This document shows, piece after piece, positions 7,742 through 63,397 of a stretch of DNA of 64,000 nucleotides. The notes under the pieces are model-generated. The model saw only the letters and a program-made list of their open reading frames with translations, was not told where the DNA came from and did no database searches. Made by a program: the position numbers and the translations under genes. Every line of letters begins with the position of its first letter. Position 1 is the first letter of the stretch. This DNA is from a virus (lineage: Duplodnaviria > Heunggongvirae > Uroviricota > Caudoviricetes): IMG/VR virus record IMGVR_UViG_3300037466_003234; one strand, given 5' to 3'.

Positions 7742-8865
7742 TAGCCTCTATTCCTTTTGTAAAGCTCTGCAAGCGTTGCTGCGCTATTCTTTGTAATAAT
7801 ATCAGCTTTCACTTCGACTGTGTTATTGGCGATATTTTCTGAGCGCTTGTTTCGAACGATCGAATCCCTATAAAGTTCGGCTGCATTGCGGGCAGCTTCG
7901 TTAACAGTACGCACCGATTCCTTATAGGATTCAGAGTGTGCTTGAAGAAGCTCGTCTTGCGTAAGGCCAAATTGTACGTGAACAGTTTCAATATCGTACT
8001 TTGATGCTGGATCAACGCCGTCAAGGTACTTCGTCATACCTTCGTAGGTTGCGTATTTAACGCCTGGCACATGGCATGGGCTCTTTGGGCTCTGTAAGAA
8101 TTCGGCAAGCGAAATACCCAAAAGCTTTGGGATCTTCTTTGAATCTAGGAAAGGAAAGCAAAAGAGCGTGAACGTATTAAAGCCAGATCCGGTCTGGTCG
8201 GCCATGATCATCATGGATGGCATTGCCAAATGACCTAAGATCAGACCTTTATCGCTTAGGAGCTTGAGGTCATCAACTAAAGCTTGCTGAGCACGCTGAA
8301 GGTCTGGAGCCTCAAACGTAACAGATAGAAAAATAGCGGGCTCGACCCTGCGAATAGGATGGCCAACGTGAAGTAACGGCAGGAGCTTGATTTCATTCAA
8401 GCGATCCAAGTACTCGAATCGATTTTCGATCTTATAGAGGCCTGCGGCCTTCAAGCGGCGCTTGTTAATTAACGAGAACAGGGCGTTAATTGGCTTTGCA
8501 AGGACGCCAAGGATTCGGGCGCCGAAAGATGGATAGTCGGTGTATTGGTAAAGAACTGAATTGGACTTAACCTTTTCGAGGGCCTTTTTGATCTTCGGAT
8601 AGTCATCCAACATGACGGAGGCATCAACGATGTTGAGTAACTTGCCGTCGTTGCGACCGCTCGTAGAAGTAGGAAGGAACTTGACCTTCTCGCCTTCGGT
8701 CTTTTCGATAAACTCGGCTACGATCTCGGTCGGCGTCTTTCCAAGGATGTGCCCTTGGACGGCGTCAAGGCCGGAAAGCACATAGTGCCTAATCTTGTTC
8801 CCACCCATCTGGCGGGCAAAGCGCAGGGACAAATCTACTTGGGCTAAAGGACGAAGTTCGATCAT
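7741..8865 (-). CDS. hypothetical protein (374 aa)
   Basis: ATG at 8865 with GAGGTGA SD (the track start is a GTG). No family recognised by eye. Confidence 0.55.
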   Translation of the reverse strand: MIELRPLAQVDLSLRFARQMGGNKIRHYVLSGLDAVQGHILGKTPTEIVAEFIEKTEGEKVKFLPTSTSGRNDGKLLNIVDASVMLDDYPKIKKALEKVKSNSVLYQYTDYPSFGARILGVLAKPINALFSLINKRRLKAAGLYKIENRFEYLDRLNEIKLLPLLHVGHPIRRVEPAIFLSVTFEAPDLQRAQQALVDDLKLLSDKGLILGHLAMPSMMIMADQTGSGFNTFTLFCFPFLDSKKIPKLLGISLAEFLQSPKSPCHVPGVKYATYEGMTKYLDGVDPASKYDIETVHVQFGLTQDELLQAHSESYKESVRTVNEAARNAAELYRDSIVRNKRSENIANNTVEVKADIITKNSAATLAELYKRNRG

Positions 8866-8891
8866 AATCACCTCGTCCTGTTAATATCATA

Positions 8892-9455
8892 TCAAGGTTT
8901 GCCGGATCGGGCGTTTTTAACGATTTCTTCTTCGGACATTTCGGGCGCTACCTGCTTAGCCCACTTAACGAAGTCCGTCTCTAACATGCGATCAATGCGG
9001 CCTGCAAAATTCTTATTGGGAGCGTAGCAGACTAGGGCAACGCTGTTGCCATTTTTAAGAAGCTTGAAATCTTCAGGATTGGCGATCATCCAGTAGCGCG
9101 GGGCGAGCCTGACCACATGGTTGGGAAGGCCATAGTTCTCGACCGAGTTTATCGCAGCCTCTTCGACCATCTCAACGAGGTCTCGTTTAAAGAGAAACTT
9201 CAGGGTCAGCTGGGGCATCAAGGATGCCAAGGCCACGTCGGCCACATGACCGCGAATTAACGTGACGGCCCTGCGATCATATAGATCGACTTCCTCAGCC
9301 CTACCGTCCTCTTCAAAAGAAGTGGTTCCGATCTGGCAGTTATAATGCTGGACGTTAAATTTGATGTTAACGGTCGCCACCGCGTCCAAGAACTCTTTGA
9401 AAGTGACGAACTTAACGTTAAAGCCGACGACAGTTTGTTGATAGGCGGTTTTCAT
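8892..9455 (-). CDS. hypothetical protein (187 aa)
   Basis: ORF. ATGATATTAAC motif upstream, shared with the next gene. Confidence 0.55.
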   Translation of the reverse strand: MKTAYQQTVVGFNVKFVTFKEFLDAVATVNIKFNVQHYNCQIGTTSFEEDGRAEEVDLYDRRAVTLIRGHVADVALASLMPQLTLKFLFKRDLVEMVEEAAINSVENYGLPNHVVRLAPRYWMIANPEDFKLLKNGNSVALVCYAPNKNFAGRIDRMLETDFVKWAKQVAPEMSEEEIVKNARSGKP

Positions 9456-9537
9456 GCCCAGTTAATATCATGGAGATGGACGCCAAATGGTTGAAAGGGG
9501 CGTCCAAGATAAGAGGGCTTATTCTCCCAGGCCCCAC

Positions 9538-9795
9538 TCAGCGTTCGGGCTTACATACCCGGTTCATGGGCACCAATTTCCCAGGCTTGTCTCTTGCGGC
9601 CCAAGATTCGACCCACATTTCTCGGGCGCCTTCATTCCACGCAAAGTGCGTGACATCGCCCGCTAGGTCACGGATCACTCTTCCGTAGCCCCGCCTTTCT
9701 AGCCGCCGCCAATACGCCTGCGTCATCTCGGGTGCCCCATTAAAGGGGATGCCTTCAATGTATTCGATATAGGGGCCTCCGTTAATGAGCCTCAT
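9538..9795 (-). CDS. hypothetical protein
   Basis: ATG at 9795 with GAGGGG SD. Confidence 0.45.
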   Translation of the reverse strand: MRLINGGPYIEYIEGIPFNGAPEMTQAYWRRLERRGYGRVIRDLAGDVTHFAWNEGAREMWVESWAARDKPGKLVPMNRVCKPER

Positions 9796-9998
9796 TGAAG
9801 GCACACCGCCCCTCGGCTCTCTTTTTGGACCTCTAAGAGGCGGAGACAGTCATTGCACACTGAGACTTCGGGCTTCGAAAAGTAGCCTTCATTTGGGGCC
9901 ATGAGATCGAGGATCGCCTGGGCCGACATGGTGAATAGCTCCGATTGATGGCAGCAATCCCAGCATAGTCCACACGACGAATACTGGATCGTTTTCAT
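9792..9998 (-). CDS. Cys-rich small protein
   Basis: SSCGLCWDCCHQ...CNDC. First minus-strand gene next to the control region. Confidence 0.4.
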   Translation of the reverse strand: MKTIQYSSCGLCWDCCHQSELFTMSAQAILDLMAPNEGYFSKPEVSVCNDCLRLLEVQKESRGAVCLQ

Positions 9999-15349: not shown

Positions 15350-16162
15350 ATGGACATCACTAAAAAACTTGACATGATTGTTAATGCCAACGAATTGTTA
15401 AGCGAAATGTTTCCTAATAAACATAAGGATATTAAGCTAGACGAAGTTGAGGCAGTCTATAGCCGCAACGTGCTAGGCATTCAAGCCGATGCAAAAACTA
15501 AGAAAGGTACCGGCAAGGGATATTTAACCGGCATTATGTACCTTGCACCTGCTAGCCTTAGCGGCGTCAATATCTGCCCTAAATCTAGTGCGGGTTGCCG
15601 GTCCGCTTGCCTGTTTAGCGCCGGACGTGGACGCTTTTATAGCATCACGCGGGCGCGTATCGTTAAAACGCTTGCATATCACTTGGATACGCCGCGCTTT
15701 GTCGAAACTATTAAAAAATCGATCAAGTCTCTAATCGTAAAGGCTAAAAATCAAGGCCTAATCCCGGTTGTTAGGCTCAATGGCACATCGGATATTCTTT
15801 GGGAACGTACCACGGATATTTTGCAGACATTCCCCGATGTGCAATTCTATGACTATACTAAAATTGCTAAGCGGTTTTTGTTCAGTATTCCCGCTAACTA
15901 TCACTTGACGCTATCGCTTAGCGAGGATAACGATAACGACGCTAAGCTTGCACTATCCAAAGGCTTTAACGTTGCTGCAGTGTTTCGTAAAGAGTTGCCG
16001 TCAAGTCTCTTCGGCTATGATGTAACTAGCGGCGACGAAACTGATTTAAGGTTTTTAGATCGGCGCGGCGTCGTCGTGGGCCTTAAGGCTAAAGGCAAGG
16101 CTAAAACCGATCAATCTGGCTTTGTTAGGGATTATAGCAGCGCGGCTAAGATCGCCGCATAA
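15350..16162 (+). CDS. Cys-cluster protein (C-x6-C-x3-C), possibly Gp37/Gp68-like
   Basis: Motif GATAACGAAAGGGATAGGTTATG. NICPKSSAGCRSAC Cys triad; family assignment tentative. Confidence 0.55.
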   Translation: MDITKKLDMIVNANELLSEMFPNKHKDIKLDEVEAVYSRNVLGIQADAKTKKGTGKGYLTGIMYLAPASLSGVNICPKSSAGCRSACLFSAGRGRFYSITRARIVKTLAYHLDTPRFVETIKKSIKSLIVKAKNQGLIPVVRLNGTSDILWERTTDILQTFPDVQFYDYTKIAKRFLFSIPANYHLTLSLSEDNDNDAKLALSKGFNVAAVFRKELPSSLFGYDVTSGDETDLRFLDRRGVVVGLKAKGKAKTDQSGFVRDYSSAAKIAA

Positions 16163-19369: not shown

Positions 19370-19410
19370 TTATTCTTGACCGCAAAGCATGACTATTATA
19401 ATCTAATAAG

Positions 19411-19722
19411 ATGAACACTCGCGATCTGATGGACTTCGGCCCACGAGAGCGGCGGTTAGCTGCTGAACTCCTATTACTCTTTAGGAGTCCACGAGATAAA
19501 ACGCTCCGGCTAGGGGAGTTTGTTTCGCCAGAATATAACCCCATTTCAAAAATCGTTTTCTTAGTAGACATTAACTTTAATGTCGGCATGGTGCGCGATG
19601 GATACTTAGAGGATTGGTATATCTGCCCCATGTGTAAAGAGGAAGGCTTTGGGGATGCCCTGGCCAAAGGCAAGGTTTGTTGTAGATCATATCTGAAAAG
19701 AGAAATTCCGATCGCTGCTTGA
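19411..19722 (+). CDS. hypothetical protein (CxxC...CC)
   Basis: Preceded by TTGACC-n15-TATAAT. Near-leaderless. Confidence 0.45.
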   Translation: MNTRDLMDFGPRERRLAAELLLLFRSPRDKTLRLGEFVSPEYNPISKIVFLVDINFNVGMVRDGYLEDWYICPMCKEEGFGDALAKGKVCCRSYLKREIPIAA

Positions 19723-20309: not shown

Positions 20310-20333
20310 AACGTTTAAGTAGAGTCGCAACAA

Positions 20334-20366
20334 ATGCCGCTCCTTGCAAAGGGAGCGGCATTTTTC
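20334..20366 (+). terminator. intrinsic terminator
   Basis: ATGCCGCTCC-loop-GGAGCGGCAT then TTTTTCATTT. Confidence 0.6.
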
Positions 20367-20433
20367 ATTTATAACATTTGATTTTGCCATATTCCCATGG
20401 TACGCGCTCAACAAATACGCTTTGGGGGAGACA

Positions 20434-20772
20434 ATGAAAGATATTCTGATTATTGAGGAGGACCAGGCCATTAGAGAGGTTCTAGGTCTTTATTGTAATC
20501 ACTGCAGGCAAAATTGCATATGTGTGTGTAATATTGGCGAGGGATTTAAGGAGCTAGAAAAGAAAAATCCATCCCTTATTCTGCTAGATCTAAGTTACCA
20601 TACCGAAAACCTACCAGAATTTATCCGTAAGGCCAGACAATCGGTCTCTAATCCTCGTATTTTTATAATGAGCGCCATGAATGGCGCCGAAGAAATTGCA
20701 AGAAATAATGATGTAAGCTTCATTGCAAAACCTTTTCATCTTGATTTGATTGAGAAAATCATTTGCGAATAA
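20434..20772 (+). CDS. stand-alone response-regulator receiver (REC/CheY-like) domain protein with Cys-rich insertion
   Basis: ILIIEED...LILLDLS...IFIMSA...FIAKPF matches REC acidic pocket, phospho-acceptor Asp, S/T and Lys. CNHCRQNCICVCN inserted after beta1. GGGGAGA SD. Confidence 0.7.
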   Translation: MKDILIIEEDQAIREVLGLYCNHCRQNCICVCNIGEGFKELEKKNPSLILLDLSYHTENLPEFIRKARQSVSNPRIFIMSAMNGAEEIARNNDVSFIAKPFHLDLIEKIICE

Positions 20773-20950
20773 GATGTGAAGAATTCGTCAAAATAATTGT
20801 TGACGCGAGGCAACAATTAACGTATTCTGATATTAGAAACGATCGCAAATTAATAAAACTCTAAGAGTCAGCGGTCATTTCTCAACAATACAAAATGAAG
20901 TACGTGTGGAAGCGTACAAGATAAACGAAAGGTAAAAAAGGTAAACGATA

Positions 20951-21535
20951 ATGAGTCAAAGTGTGAAGTTGAACGGAAGCCGACTGCATAGCATCACCCA
21001 TGCATCTCACAGCGCAGAAGTAACAATGACAGCATTAGCATTACGTGAACGTAACCGGCATTTCTCGGACATTGGCCGGACCCGAACCGCTCTTATCCGC
21101 GCAGGAGAGCGTATTGTTGACGAAGAGTATCGAAGGTTTTGGATTGACCTTGAAAAGGAAGGCGTTGGCAAAATCGTTTATGGAAGACGCGGAAACCCAG
21201 ACCGGTTTGAATGGTACCACGCGCTTAAGATGGTTGCCGATTGCGCATTAACCGGCAAGGATATAACCATTGAGCCACAATCGATGTTGCAAGCTGAGGA
21301 AGAAAAACCAGCTCCTAAGAAGGCAGCTGCACCTAAGAAGTCGGTGCGCATGACCAGTGCGCAAAAGAAAGATAAGGTCGAACATGCCGAAGTTGCTTCG
21401 GCTAAAGGTTCTGCTGAAAAGCTCGTGGTTATTCCATTGAGAAAAGACTTTTTCCTTGAAGTCAAGATGCCAGCTGACGTTTCTAAGGATGAAATGGAAG
21501 TCATTCAGGAAGCTTTGAAACGCGCTTCAGCATAA
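20951..21535 (+). CDS. hypothetical protein with Lys/Ala-rich linker
   Basis: AAAGGTAAA SD. Upstream TTGACG-n17-TATTCT with an 8-bp IR over the -35. Confidence 0.55.
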   Translation: MSQSVKLNGSRLHSITHASHSAEVTMTALALRERNRHFSDIGRTRTALIRAGERIVDEEYRRFWIDLEKEGVGKIVYGRRGNPDRFEWYHALKMVADCALTGKDITIEPQSMLQAEEEKPAPKKAAAPKKSVRMTSAQKKDKVEHAEVASAKGSAEKLVVIPLRKDFFLEVKMPADVSKDEMEVIQEALKRASA

Positions 21536-21567
21536 TAAGGAGAATTTAAGCAAAACAAAACATTTAG

Positions 21568-21601
21568 GCCGGAGCGGAAACGCTCCGGCTTTTTTATTTT
21601 T
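21568..21601 (+). terminator. intrinsic terminator
   Basis: GCCGGAGCG-gaaa-CGCTCCGGC then TTTTTTATTTTT. Confidence 0.7.
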
Positions 21602-21732: not shown

Positions 21733-22464
21733 ATGTTTAACACAGATAGAGGATCTAAAATGGCAGCTTATAAAATCGGTATCGTCGGCGCTATGTGCGT
21801 CGCCGCTAGTATTCTGAGCGGATGCGGCGGGGCTCCACAAATGGCAGCCGCTCCGAGCGTACCGGTAGACGTTGGCCCTGGCCCTAAAGATGATGGTTAC
21901 GTAGTTCGCGGCGTAGCTCTTTACACCATTAGCAATGAGCAACAAACGGCGCTAATGAAGCTCTTTAACCTCGCTATGCCCACGGCATACGCTGCAACCG
22001 GTAGCACGACTGTTACCTATGTAAACGCAGCATCAGTTAACTTCTCTATCAACGTATCTAATTTCGCAGCTGGATCATTTACCGGTAACACGCTAAGCCT
22101 TGGACATGTTGACCTTGGCTCAATTGACGATAACAATCTAAAGGTATGCGGCGCGGGCGGTAACTCCAAATGTAGCTCTGCAGTGATTCGCGTATATACG
22201 ACTGGATCTATTGCGGGCTTTGTAAATACCGCCGATGGCTATGGCGCTCCGGTCTATGCGGGATCGCTTAACCCATCGACCGCTGTGGGCCTAACTTCGG
22301 CCAATAGCGTCCAGGTTCAGACCTATACTATCCCTTCTAGCGATCACCGCATTACCACGTCAGACTTTGCGTCAACTCAATACGCTGTTAGTTCTGACTT
22401 CGCAAATGCTGGCGCGGGCTCCTATAGCATGACCTTTGTGGTCGAGTACGCTCTCGCTCCTTAA
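21733..22464 (+). CDS. lipoprotein (lipobox LSGC)
   Basis: AAGGAGA SD. MAAYKIGIVGAMCVAASILSGCGG lipoprotein signal. Gly/Ser/Thr-rich mature region. Confidence 0.6.
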   Translation: MFNTDRGSKMAAYKIGIVGAMCVAASILSGCGGAPQMAAAPSVPVDVGPGPKDDGYVVRGVALYTISNEQQTALMKLFNLAMPTAYAATGSTTVTYVNAASVNFSINVSNFAAGSFTGNTLSLGHVDLGSIDDNNLKVCGAGGNSKCSSAVIRVYTTGSIAGFVNTADGYGAPVYAGSLNPSTAVGLTSANSVQVQTYTIPSSDHRITTSDFASTQYAVSSDFANAGAGSYSMTFVVEYALAP

Positions 22465-24902: not shown

Positions 24903-25799
24903 ATGAATAAAGTAAATTATCTGTGGTTGAAAGATTCCATTAATCTGAGCTTTGAAGGGAAGCATTTCACGATTTCAAGCGGCGATCCGCTCTTTGAAAA
25001 GGTTACGCAAGCGATCCGCGAACAGCGCTTGGAGGACATCCCAAGCATTGTGGACATCTCCAAAGACCTTAAGATTGCAGGCTTGGAGCTTAAAGACGGC
25101 GCTCTATACGATGGCGAAACGGCGCTCCCTGAAGCTCTTAACCGTCGCATCTTGGAATATCGCGACGGCGCTATTCCATATGACTCTCTGCTCAAGTTCT
25201 GGGAGAACGTGAAGAAAAACCCATCGTTCAATTCACGTCAAATGCTCTTCTCATTCCTAGCTCACAATGGACACCCTATCACTGAAGACGGATGTTTCAT
25301 TGCCTACAGAGGTGTCAGGGAAGACTTCAAAGATAAGCATTCTGGCACTTTTGACAATTCGCCAGGCTCCGTTTGCGAAATGCCTCGCGACCAAGTGGAC
25401 GACAACCCAAACAACACTTGCTCCAAGGGCTTGCACGTTGCATGCTTCGACTACGCCAAAGGCTTCGGCGCCAAGCTTGTCGAAGTGAAGGTCAACCCAG
25501 AAGACGTTGTTGCGGTTCCTACCGATTACAACGGCACCAAGATGCGCGTCTGTAAGTTCGAAGTGATCCAAGAGTGTGAGTCCATGAGAACTGAGACGCT
25601 CTATAACCACGGTATCAGTCGCGAAGAGCTTTGCGACGACGAGAGCGATGAGGATGGCTGCGAAGACTGTGGAGATTGCGAAGACTGCGATAAGAAAACG
25701 TTAGAAGATGGTAACTGCCCTGAATGCAGAGATGACGTTGAAAGTGACGACGCATTCTGCAAGCACTGCGGCACCGATCTGGACCAGTATCGCGGATAA
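24903..25799 (+). CDS. rIIB: rIIB-like protein
   Basis: HSGTFDNSPGSVCEMPRDQVDDNPNNTCSKGLHVAC...VEVKVNPEDVVAVPTDYNGTKMRVCKFEV aligns with T4 rIIB HSNTFDNTPGKVVKMPRTRVNDDDTQTCSRGLHVCS...VKVKVHPRDVVSIPIDYNDAKMRTCQYEV. GGAGGAAG SD. Confidence 0.85.
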   Translation: MNKVNYLWLKDSINLSFEGKHFTISSGDPLFEKVTQAIREQRLEDIPSIVDISKDLKIAGLELKDGALYDGETALPEALNRRILEYRDGAIPYDSLLKFWENVKKNPSFNSRQMLFSFLAHNGHPITEDGCFIAYRGVREDFKDKHSGTFDNSPGSVCEMPRDQVDDNPNNTCSKGLHVACFDYAKGFGAKLVEVKVNPEDVVAVPTDYNGTKMRVCKFEVIQECESMRTETLYNHGISREELCDDESDEDGCEDCGDCEDCDKKTLEDGNCPECRDDVESDDAFCKHCGTDLDQYRG

Positions 25800-26097: not shown

Positions 26098-26307
26098 ATG
26101 AAGGTCTTGAAAAGATTCAAAGAGGGCGACGCGATTCCAGAGGGTGCTAAGTTCATCTCCAAAGAACAGGTCAAAGATGACATGCCTTACAGGTTCTCGT
26201 CGGAGGTCGTCTCCAGCGGATTTTTCTTTGAGAGAACCAGGACTTATGCGCATTACCATGTGAGAACATATTATATCTATGAGGTAGAAGATGATCACAC
26301 TTCCTAA
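26098..26307 (+). CDS. hypothetical small protein
   Basis: Identical GAGGAGTGAATTTTATG context (MKVLKRF...). Confidence 0.5.
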   Translation: MKVLKRFKEGDAIPEGAKFISKEQVKDDMPYRFSSEVVSSGFFFERTRTYAHYHVRTYYIYEVEDDHTS

Positions 26308-26740
26308 CGATAACCGCATCGGTGGCGCTCATGGTAGCTATGTAAAATTGAGCCCATCTCTTGGCGTGAAGATTATTCATTCTGTCAAGTTTAATAATAT
26401 CGCCAAGGCTTATCGTAGTGGAGCTTATAGGAACGCGCTGAGAGAAGCTTATATCCTTAACGTTGCATTTGAGAGCGGCGTCGTTCCCCGCTGCTATGGA
26501 GTCACATTGGTTCGAGTTAAAAAAGGATATAGGGTGGGGGTGCTTATGCAACACCTCGGAAGTACACCACTTTTCGAAAGTGAATTTTGTGACAAATTTT
26601 CCGAAGCTTTCGACGAAATTAATGATAGATTAATTGAGCTAGGGATTGTTCATAACGATATACACGATGAGAATGTTATGGTCTATCGTGGCAAATTCTA
26701 CGTGATTGATTTTTCGCCCGACTGCGTTAAAATGAAATAA
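26291..26740 (+). CDS. small protein-kinase-like (APH/Kdo-kinase-like) protein
   Basis: IVHNDIHDENVMV resembles the HxDxxxxN catalytic loop. YVIDFS resembles DFG/IDW. GAGGTAGAAG SD. Confidence 0.5.
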   Translation: MITLPNDNRIGGAHGSYVKLSPSLGVKIIHSVKFNNIAKAYRSGAYRNALREAYILNVAFESGVVPRCYGVTLVRVKKGYRVGVLMQHLGSTPLFESEFCDKFSEAFDEINDRLIELGIVHNDIHDENVMVYRGKFYVIDFSPDCVKMK

Positions 26741-60957: not shown

Positions 60958-61029
60958 GCTATCGTCGTCTAGGGGCCTAGGATACCGTCATTTCGGGCGG
61001 AGACGCTGGTTCAAATCCAGCCGATAGCT
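60958..61029 (+). tRNA. tRNA-Glu-like gene with aberrant anticodon loop
   Basis: Acceptor GCTATCG/CGATAGC. D-arm TCGTCTAGGGGCCTAGGATA and T-arm GCTGG-TTCAAAT-CCAGC parallel E. coli tRNA-Glu. Anticodon region CCGTCATTTCGGGCGG is 1 nt short (6- or 8-nt loop). Confidence 0.4.
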
Positions 61030-61936: not shown

Positions 61937-63397
61937 ATGAAGAACTTATCTGCAATGTTGTTGTGTGATTTTTATAAAATTAGCCATAGGGCTATGTATC
62001 CAGTGGGCACTGAAGTCGTTTATTCGACCTGGACGCCTCGCGCTTCTCGCATGAATGGAGTGGAAAAGGTCGTTGCCTTTGGCTTCCAAGCTTTCTTGAA
62101 AGAGCTTAACGAATATTTTGACGTTAATTTCTTCGGTAGAGATAAGGAAGAGGTTGTTTTTGAATATTCTCGTATTGTCAAACACACCTTAGGTGTCGAA
62201 AATCCTGAAACTAAGCATATCGAAGATTTGCATGATCTTGGATACCTGCCTTTGTCGATCAAGGCCCTCCCAGAAGGAACCTTGGTACCACTTCGCGTTC
62301 CAATGCTTACGATCCAAAACACCGACCCTCGCTTCTTCTGGCTCACCAACTACATTGAGACCTTGGCCTCATGCCAACTCTGGCAGCCTTGCACGTCGGC
62401 AACGATTGCACGCGAATATCGTCAGATCCTTGATAAATGGGCCATGAAGACCGTTGGAAATACTGATTTCGTTCCTTTCCAGGGCCACGACTTCTCTATG
62501 CGCGGCATGAGTTCGCTTGATTCAGCGATGCTCAGTGGCATGGGCCACCTCACCCAATTCGTTGGCACCGACACGATTCCTGCTATCCAGGTAGCTGAAA
62601 AGTATTATGGAGCTAATGTTCAGACGGAAATGGTAGGAACGTCAATTCCTGCAACGGAACACTCGATCCAATGTGCTTATGGTAACGACGTTGAATACTA
62701 CAAAAACATGATCAATCGCGTCCATCCAAGTGGCTTCGTATCGATCGTGTCTGACGGATACGACTTCTGGGATGTCATCACTCGCGTAATTCCTTCCTTG
62801 AAACGCGATATCTTGAAACGCGATGGTCGCGTTGTTGTTCGCCCTGACTCTGGAGATCCAGTTCTTATTGTTTGCGGTGATCCAAATGCTCCAGTTGGAA
62901 GCCCTGAATATAAGGGTGCAATTGAGTGTCTTTACGAAACTTTTGGTGGAACCGTCACTAAAGAAGGTTATAAAGTGCTCGATAGCCATATCGGCTTGAT
63001 TTACGGTGACGCTATTACCCTTCGCCGCGCAGAAGAGATCTGCGAGCGTTTGGCTGCCAAGAGATTTGCTTCGATTAATGTTGTGTTCGGTATCGGTTCT
63101 TATACGTACCAATACAATACTCGTGACACCTTCGGATTTGCCCTTAAGAGCACGCTCTGCGTGATTAACGGCGAAGAAAAGCATATCTTTAAAGACCCTA
63201 AGACCGATAACGGCATCAAAAAGAGCCAAAAAGGTCGCGTGGCCGTCTTGAAGGATGGTAAAGAAGGTCTTAAATTCGTTGACGGCCTTGGCCTTCAAGA
63301 TAACCTCGTTAGTGATCAGCTTGTCGAGATTTATCGTGACGGCGAAATCCTTAAAGAGTATACTTTCGAAGAGATTCGCGCTCGCCTGAAGGGCTAA
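61937..63397 (+). CDS. nicotinamide phosphoribosyltransferase family protein (NAMPT/NadV-like; candidate nicotinamide ADPR transferase, Namat-like)
   Basis: N-terminus LLCDFYKISH and overall about 486 aa are NAMPT-like. Adjacent to the Prs-like gene. Confidence 0.75.
   Translation: MKNLSAMLLCDFYKISHRAMYPVGTEVVYSTWTPRASRMNGVEKVVAFGFQAFLKELNEYFDVNFFGRDKEEVVFEYSRIVKHTLGVENPETKHIEDLHDLGYLPLSIKALPEGTLVPLRVPMLTIQNTDPRFFWLTNYIETLASCQLWQPCTSATIAREYRQILDKWAMKTVGNTDFVPFQGHDFSMRGMSSLDSAMLSGMGHLTQFVGTDTIPAIQVAEKYYGANVQTEMVGTSIPATEHSIQCAYGNDVEYYKNMINRVHPSGFVSIVSDGYDFWDVITRVIPSLKRDILKRDGRVVVRPDSGDPVLIVCGDPNAPVGSPEYKGAIECLYETFGGTVTKEGYKVLDSHIGLIYGDAITLRRAEEICERLAAKRFASINVVFGIGSYTYQYNTRDTFGFALKSTLCVINGEEKHIFKDPKTDNGIKKSQKGRVAVLKDGKEGLKFVDGLGLQDNLVSDQLVEIYRDGEILKEYTFEEIRARLKG

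Follow-up and report, generated by a model that had tools for sequence, protein, structure and literature searches.

The 112-residue protein encoded at positions 20434-20772 of the window, by which we mean the whole 64,000-nucleotide stretch of phage DNA analyzed here, is almost certainly a canonical receiver domain. Its gene, called REC below, is a fixed syntenic gene of a clade of phages with genomes of about 170 kb and not a sporadic pick-up of a host gene. Together with its constant neighbor, it presents a concrete two-protein system by which a virus could read or drain host kinase signaling. Single-domain response regulators are an already known kind of protein. What is new is a family whose checked members are on phage-like contigs, its constant neighbor with a predicted winged helix and its place upstream of rIIA/rIIB. 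The gene and the signal in front of it are located as follows:

20434-20772, + strand: single-domain response regulator gene (REC), 112 amino acids, receiver domain only
20424-20430, + strand: purine-rich, Shine-Dalgarno-like GGGGGAG, 3 nt before the ATG, as read off the sequence

The open reading frame begins with the ATG at 20434 and ends with the stop codon at 20770-20772, and the resulting 112-residue product was also called by two independent gene callers (JGI and Logan). An alternative in-frame TTG start at 20344, which would give a protein of 142 residues, was rejected: it is located inside a terminator-like hairpin, and both gene callers give 112 residues. An identical REC protein is encoded by a 170,122-bp IMG/VR contig and by two independent public assemblies, and the odd residues described below are therefore not sequencing errors. 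It is the only receiver in the 64-kb window.

The sequence-only reading had proposed a stand-alone CheY-like receiver and had suggested that a Response_reg profile search and the conservation of the phospho-acceptor aspartate should decide the matter. Both came out in favor of the proposal. REC matches the Pfam Response_reg profile (PF00072) with a score of 36.3 bits (E 6.9e-9), the curated cut-off being 30.2. Residues 4-109 of its 112 align with positions 1-109 of the 111 in the profile, which confirms that the protein has no output domain, and no Trans_reg_C domain, the output domain of the OmpR/PhoB family, was found in the REC ORF. In the PDB, 62 distinct receiver sequences are matched at E values of up to 1, with RssB, Francisella KdpE and E. 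coli KdpE at the top, and the alignments to RssB, KdpE and others contain no gaps. Among the named regulator families of NCBIfam, REC scores below every cut-off, the best being DVU0259/DivK with 40 bits against 160.

An AlphaFold model of REC, which is a predicted and not a solved structure and was built on 21 family sequences, has a pLDDT of 95 and a pTM of 0.88. It shows a (βα)5 fold with five strands (β1, residues 3-7; β2, 27-31; β3, 48-52; β4, 75-80; β5, 95-98) and five helices (α1, 11-23; α2, 34-44; α3, 60-69; α4, 85-91; α5, 103-111). A Foldseek comparison of this model gave TM scores of 0.81-0.85 to KdpE and Spo0F.

All five active-site positions of REC are filled: E8 (codon 20455-20457), E9 (20458-20460), D52 (20587-20589), S80 (20671-20673) and K99 (20728-20730). 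The motifs that had been picked out by eye, namely IIEED (E8/E9), LLDLS (D52), IMSA (S80) and AKPF (K99), are indeed present and align with the active site. In order to see how common each residue is, we tallied the positions in 317 receiver domains aligned to the family profile, of which 21 are members of the REC family and the rest are other receivers:

Position 8, first acidic residue: E in REC; E in 20 of 21 family members; E in 160 and D in 132 other receivers
Position 9, second acidic residue, direct metal binding: E in REC; D in 19 of 21 family members; D in 276 and E in 3 of 292 other receivers
Position 52, phospho-acceptor Asp: D in REC; D in 21 of 21 family members; D in 289 of 294 other receivers
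Position 80, Ser/Thr: S in REC; S/T in 21 of 21 family members (Ser in 19); S/T in 274 of 291 other receivers
Position 96, aromatic switch: F in REC; F in 18 of 21 family members; F/Y in 238 other receivers
Position 99, Lys: K in REC; K in 21 of 21 family members; K in 278 of 279 aligned residues of other receivers

D52 is invariant not only in the family but also in further sister-phage homologues, and all five catalytic positions are retained in divergent sister-phage copies of 20-36% identity. The aromatic switch F96 is located three positions before the Lys, and P100 and F101, which follow the Lys, are invariant across the 21 family members. The one real oddity of the active site is the Glu at position 9, where Asp is found in about 95% of the receivers sampled. 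According to a 2025 review (PMC12632262), pseudo-receivers are those without one of the five residues, and any acidic residue at DD1/DD2 conforms. As E8 and E9 are both acidic, REC is a true receiver under this definition, and a pseudo-receiver or an aspartate-less receiver is ruled out by the presence of all five residues. Being at the metal-binding position, Glu9 may result in slow or altered phosphorylation in this phage. We found no paper on a Glu at the corresponding position 13 of CheY.

An exhaustive HMMER search of 1.84 billion representative proteins produced 434 matches at E ≤ 0.001 and nine at E ≤ 1e-10. These nine are all stand-alone proteins of 112-133 residues, and the closest 15 matches, which are 29-48% identical to REC, are stand-alone and of the same length range. 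In a profile search, the family members score 124-145 bits, whereas the next proteins score 77 bits at most. The family signature comprises EDD, LLDLLLxGE, MSAM and KPFDLD, with Leu/Leu at the two positions after D+1, a Met two residues past the Ser/Thr, and without the usual Met-Pro after the phospho-Asp. The REC family is small and distinct, and its checked members all belong to phage-like contigs: this is the case for every member with a readable context, and the contigs carry tail sheath, tail tube, rIIA/rIIB or arrays of small phage-type ORFs.

Searches for relatives outside this group returned little. In GenBank phages, tblastn found no close relative of REC, the six matches being 27-30% identical, and a megablast search with 6 kb found no cultured-phage relative at the DNA level. 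When the receiver, rIIA and the 194-residue protein described below were used in a word-indexed protein search and in IMG/VR scans, only the same phage was found. A pattern scan with a six-sequence alignment retrieved only generic receivers from metagenomes and nothing from genomes, and the absence of the family from bacterial genomes is therefore weakly tested.

Other receivers were encountered in the related phages. In a more distant myovirus of 117 kb (L006), a family receiver directly follows a 399-residue protein (8760-9959), a fusion of a phosphatase domain of the dual-specificity type (DSPc, 35.5 bits) with a rubrerythrin-like domain, which is a different, phosphate-related neighbor. 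In some sister phages, a second receiver protein is found 2-3.5 kb upstream of the syntenic one (L036:1294-1791 and L042:1-167). The L036 protein, with 165 residues and 71.9 bits, is fused to a Fis-type HTH_8 motif.

REC is similar to the single-domain regulators CheY, Spo0F, DivK and CpdR in its (βα)5 fold, the five active-site positions, the F96 switch, the size of about 115 residues and the lack of an output. Unlike them, it belongs to a lytic-type myovirus and has no kinase gene close by, its second acidic residue is a Glu, and its family has a signature of its own in which the Met-Pro after the phospho-Asp is missing. The automatic name given to the protein by JGI is OmpR/PhoB-family response regulator. 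As in that family, a predicted winged-helix protein is at hand, here next door, and the solved receivers nearest to REC are those of KdpE, PmrA and ArlR (25-28% identity, TM about 0.8). However, there is no fused Trans_reg_C, and the neighbor is a separate gene whose predicted winged helix resembles the Fur/SarA type. Other viral receiver proteins (PHROG 731, 5982 and 8810; BFVD entries such as A0A6C0R1B8 of Alteromonas phage vB_AmeM_PT11-V22; giant-virus hybrid kinases) share the receiver fold, are virus-borne and are uncharacterized, but they are just 13-23% identical to REC, most of them are fused to kinase or DNA-binding domains, and none belongs to the REC family.

The cRec domain of jumbo phages is a divergent receiver that is linked to NAD/ADP-ribose enzymes and never to two-component systems (Iyer et al. 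2021, PMC7824862). REC resembles it in being a phage-borne receiver fold with conserved aspartates, but REC is canonical and has no NAD/ADP-ribose neighbors. Phage spo0A homologues without a receiver domain have been described (PMC10294663), and another paper reports that the phage protein PIT4 affects host two-component systems (PMC10714779). In our literature searches, we found no paper that characterizes a phage-encoded stand-alone canonical receiver.

The surroundings of REC are conserved across the clade, and the genes that matter in this respect, together with one more distant gene that is considered further below, are:

20951-21535, + strand: 194-residue partner gene; N-terminal predicted winged helix (about residues 1-115), linker, C-terminal β-hairpin and helix
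22777-24879: rIIA, in which a GHKL-type ATPase match is the only kinase-related feature
24903-25799, + strand: rIIB, with a weak zinc-ribbon match at its end (residues 271-294) that is below the Pfam cut-offs
61937-63397: nicotinamide phosphoribosyltransferase, NAD salvage

In nine of nine clade contexts (the window, L008, L036, L038, L040, the P0271 contig, L041, L042 and L045), REC directly precedes the winged-helix gene. The gap between the two is always 93-195 nt and measures 178 nt in the window, where the partner is the next ORF after the REC stop codon. The usual order places the receiver first, then the winged-helix gene and no more than three small ORFs, followed by a gene for a protein of about 220-384 residues, rIIA and rIIB; the product of the gene before rIIA is lipoprotein-like in the window. 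Homologues of the 194-residue protein number at least 74, are 170-195 residues long and 40-62% identical, and are found on many contigs of 156-171 kb. The two families can also occur apart: the unrelated 43-kb contig L044 encodes a divergent winged-helix homologue (31% identity) with no REC beside it, and the receiver of L006 has no winged-helix gene beside it. When the same phage pairs are compared, the receivers are 20-45% identical and the winged-helix neighbors 42-52%. On these sequence identities, the receiver appears to evolve faster than its neighbor, yet it keeps the five catalytic positions.

By sequence, the 194-residue protein has no match in Pfam, PHROG, NCBIfam, PADLOC or the PDB, and it does not match Trans_reg_C. 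Its AlphaFold model, which was built on 36 sequences, has a mean pLDDT of 84 and exceeds 90 over residues 10-110. The model consists of an N-terminal helical domain with a β-hairpin, a disordered linker rich in Lys, Ala and Pro (about residues 115-155), and a C-terminal β-hairpin with a helix. In fold comparisons, the predicted domain resembles winged helices of the Fur/SarA type and not the OmpR-type Trans_reg_C. The predicted winged-helix domain is a lead, at the level of the modeled fold, to DNA binding.

Two further small genes on either side of the pair deserve a description. A conserved protein of about 235 residues, encoded in the interval from the winged-helix gene to rIIA (21757-22464, + strand), has a lipoprotein-type signal (…AASILSGCGG, lipobox LSGC). 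A 55%-identical homologue occupies the same place in L008, similar-sized genes trail the winged-helix gene in several sister phages, and no family match was found; the protein is possibly an rII-linked factor of the membrane or of superinfection exclusion. Upstream of REC, a 103-residue protein (19411-19722, + strand) contains a CPMC…CC motif, is 50% identical to a syntenic L008 protein and is preceded by a TTGACC promoter-like site of its own at 19376. This protein, too, matches no family and may be a small zinc-binding protein.

The transcription signals found around REC and the winged-helix gene are:

20332-20363, + strand: terminator-like hairpin with a 12-14 bp stem and a T-rich tail; ends the upstream 79-residue gene and is the 5' boundary of the unit formed by REC and the winged-helix gene
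20794-20819, + strand: perfect 9-bp inverted repeat TAATTGTTG-N8-CAACAATTA, overlapping the -35 hexamer of the promoter-like site below
20800-20828, + strand: sigma70-like promoter match TTGACG-17-TATTCT before the winged-helix gene, a consensus match only
21566-21591, + strand: terminator-like hairpin of 11 pairs, 8 of them G-C, followed by a T run; closes the unit

REC had been thought to occupy a promoter- and terminator-flanked unit of its own. The upstream half of this picture is borne out by the strong hairpin at 20332-20363, but no sigma70-like promoter was found between this hairpin and the REC start codon. On the 3' side the picture fails: there is no terminator between REC and the winged-helix gene, the next hairpin being after the latter, and the next promoter-like site serves the following gene. 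The hairpins bracket only the pair. Of the six sister loci that were read, four (L036, L040, L041 and L042) have TTGACT-type sites at the same intergenic place. Since a promoter-like site of its own precedes the winged-helix gene and a gap of 93-195 nt separates it from REC, the two genes need not be co-expressed. The inverted repeat is a candidate operator, which is statistically weak when taken alone: dinucleotide shuffling gave at least one match within three mismatches in 37 of 100 trials. The repeat occurs once in the window, and therefore no regulon is visible.

Phages sense host signals by means of quorum-sensing receptors and arbitrium peptides. To our knowledge, hardly any study has dealt with phages that tap directly into two-component phosphotransfer. 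The reading we favor, and hold tentatively, is that REC is an orphan single-domain response regulator, which is phosphorylated by the host or by acetyl phosphate and acts via the adjacent winged-helix protein as a split regulator. No histidine kinase was found in the 64-kb window of the genome of about 170 kb, and 17 hybrid kinases used as phmmer queries found nothing kinase-like. There is no cognate histidine kinase or Hpt protein nearby, and the neighbors of REC are without kinase domains. During infection, the phosphoryl group on D52 would probably come from acetyl phosphate or from a histidine kinase or Hpt protein of the host. REC would then act via protein-protein contact, similar to other single-domain regulators, and its likeliest partner would be the adjacent winged-helix protein. 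The pair would constitute a two-gene "split response regulator" that makes both DNA binding and the transcription of genes of the phage or the host dependent on the host signaling state. The strict adjacency of the two genes across the clade suggests such a two-gene regulatory module and not a free-standing decoy, and it is from adjacency alone that the partnership is proposed. Going one step further, phosphorylated REC could switch the DNA binding of the winged-helix protein, for example at the repeat over its own promoter, and the clade could time its gene program or rII-linked lysis decisions by host signaling; this extension we consider doubtful.

The sequence-only reading had regarded REC as a phosphate sink or decoy. 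In this case, the phage receiver would compete with a host regulator for its kinase and would drain or block the pathway, and the neighboring gene would not be needed. Single-domain receivers are established as phosphate sinks, Sinorhizobium CheY1 being an example, and the complete and conserved set of catalytic positions, the lack of an output domain and the absence of a phage kinase from the window all agree with such a role. The faster divergence of the receiver compared to its neighbor (20-45% vs 42-52% identity) would fit the tracking of different host kinases. However, a sink leaves the adjacency to the winged-helix gene in nine of nine genomes unexplained, and the Glu at the metal-binding position could make this particular copy a poor phospho-acceptor. 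We regard the sink as unlikely, and control of the receptor or of envelope stress, which had been named as a possible target, found no support. If Glu9 signifies that catalysis has been lost, REC could instead be a phosphorylation-independent binder, in which the receiver fold serves as a protein-binding module. Receivers acting as adaptors or anti-adaptors include RssB and CpdR, and DivK is an allosteric kinase modulator. Just 3 of 292 other receivers have Glu as their second acidic residue, a rarity that would fit this explanation, as would the top sequence matches, which include RssB, CpdR and DivK-type regulators, all far below the family cut-offs. It is nevertheless an improbable one: even relatives with as little as 20% identity conserve the five positions, an argument for selection on the chemistry, and all five hold permitted residues, so that REC is a true receiver by the definition cited above (PMC12632262).

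A still different role would be that of a cRec-type enzyme, that is, a "cyclic-phosphate processing" receiver that acts on cADPR or 2',3'-cyclic nucleotides and not in signaling. The phage does have an NAD salvage gene, the nicotinamide phosphoribosyltransferase listed above, and in sister phages a small WYL_2 protein is encoded about 2 kb upstream of the receiver. However, the NAD gene is 41 kb away, and no NAD/ADP-ribose-processing domains are found in the neighbors of REC. Furthermore, REC scores above the cut-off of the canonical Response_reg profile and is most closely related to two-component receivers, and in a viral structure library an annotated cRec protein ranks 48th (E 0.039), whereas ordinary receivers reach an E value of 4e-6. 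An enzyme of this kind is extremely unlikely. The WYL_2-domain protein has 91 residues (L041:1297-1572 and L045:1809-2084) and adjoins a homologue of GP88; in the window, the GP88 homologue is at 15350-16162.

The most conspicuous feature of the REC sequence is a cluster of cysteines:

20494-20529, + strand: codons of the Cys-rich stretch C21-N-H-C24-R-Q-N-C28-I-C30-V-C32, at the end of α1, in the loop and in β2

This stretch had been described as a Cys-rich insertion after β1, and neither part of the description holds. The alignments to the Pfam profile and to the PDB receivers are gap-free over residues 20-33, and with 112 residues REC is short rather than long for a receiver. In the AlphaFold model, the cluster comes after α1 and consists of substitutions within a normal fold: C21 belongs to α1 (residues 11-23), C24 to the α1-β2 loop, and C28 and C30 to β2 (27-31), with C32 just after the strand. 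C111 is at the end of α5. Should REC be an accessory protein and nothing more, the gain would be two corrected annotations, as it is not an OmpR-family DNA-binding regulator and its Cys patch is no insertion.

It could be argued that REC is a metal- or redox-sensing receiver, in which the CxxC-x3-CxCxC patch holds zinc or an iron-sulfur cluster, or in which disulfides gate the activity. Five Cys and one His are found within 12 residues, the Cys content of REC is 5.4% compared to an average of about 1.4% over the ORFs of the window, and Cys at position 21, normally a Leu, is enriched in the family (11 of 21 members vs 8 of 296 other receivers). The distribution of the individual cysteines does not favor this explanation. 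C21 and C28 are at core positions, which are usually Leu or Val in other receivers, and Cys at position 28 is common in ordinary receivers (63 of 296) as well as in the family (16 of 21). Of the five clustered cysteines, only these two recur in relatives. The other three, C24, C30 and C32, are found in just two of the 21 family members, REC included, and are essentially private to this phage. The cluster is absent from the syntenic sister-phage homologues, the Cys load of the family is moderate (2-6 per protein), and the codons of CICVC (tgc ata tgt gtg tgt) fall on a run of TG dinucleotides. In the model, the cysteines are part of regular helix and strand at a pLDDT above 90, and therefore the fold needs no metal. 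The pattern of sequence conservation argues against a family-wide metal or redox site. We infer that the cysteines are mostly core or lineage-specific substitutions and not a conserved metal site, and we consider a metal- or redox-sensing receiver very unlikely.

The window is part of the genome of a large myovirus. Its clade, with genomes of about 170 kb, has a distant relative in Myxococcus phage Mx1 (169.6 kb), with which the window phage shares about 20 structural genes at 27-55% identity, and the capsid protein is 55% identical to its Mx1 counterpart. The GC content is about 45% in the window phage vs 55.5% in Mx1. No cultured phage is nearer than Mx1. Neither a receiver nor a winged-helix homologue is present in Mx1, and rII genes were not detected there; it therefore gives no functional lead and only a weak hint as to the host. 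We found no Mx1 genome paper in the literature. In the block of small genes, a 149-residue ORF (26291-26740, + strand) matches the RIO1 kinase domain with 23.8 bits, just above the Pfam cut-off of 22 (E 4e-5), and shows weaker matches to APH and to polyvalent-protein kinases. This ORF could encode a miniature protein kinase. The window also contains a tail sheath gene, a major head protein gene and eight tRNA genes. A tRNA-like gene at 60958-61029 (+ strand) adjoins a normal tRNA-Ala gene. ARAGORN assigned it no definite identity and an anticodon of two bases (tt), and it could be a degenerate or otherwise unusual tRNA.
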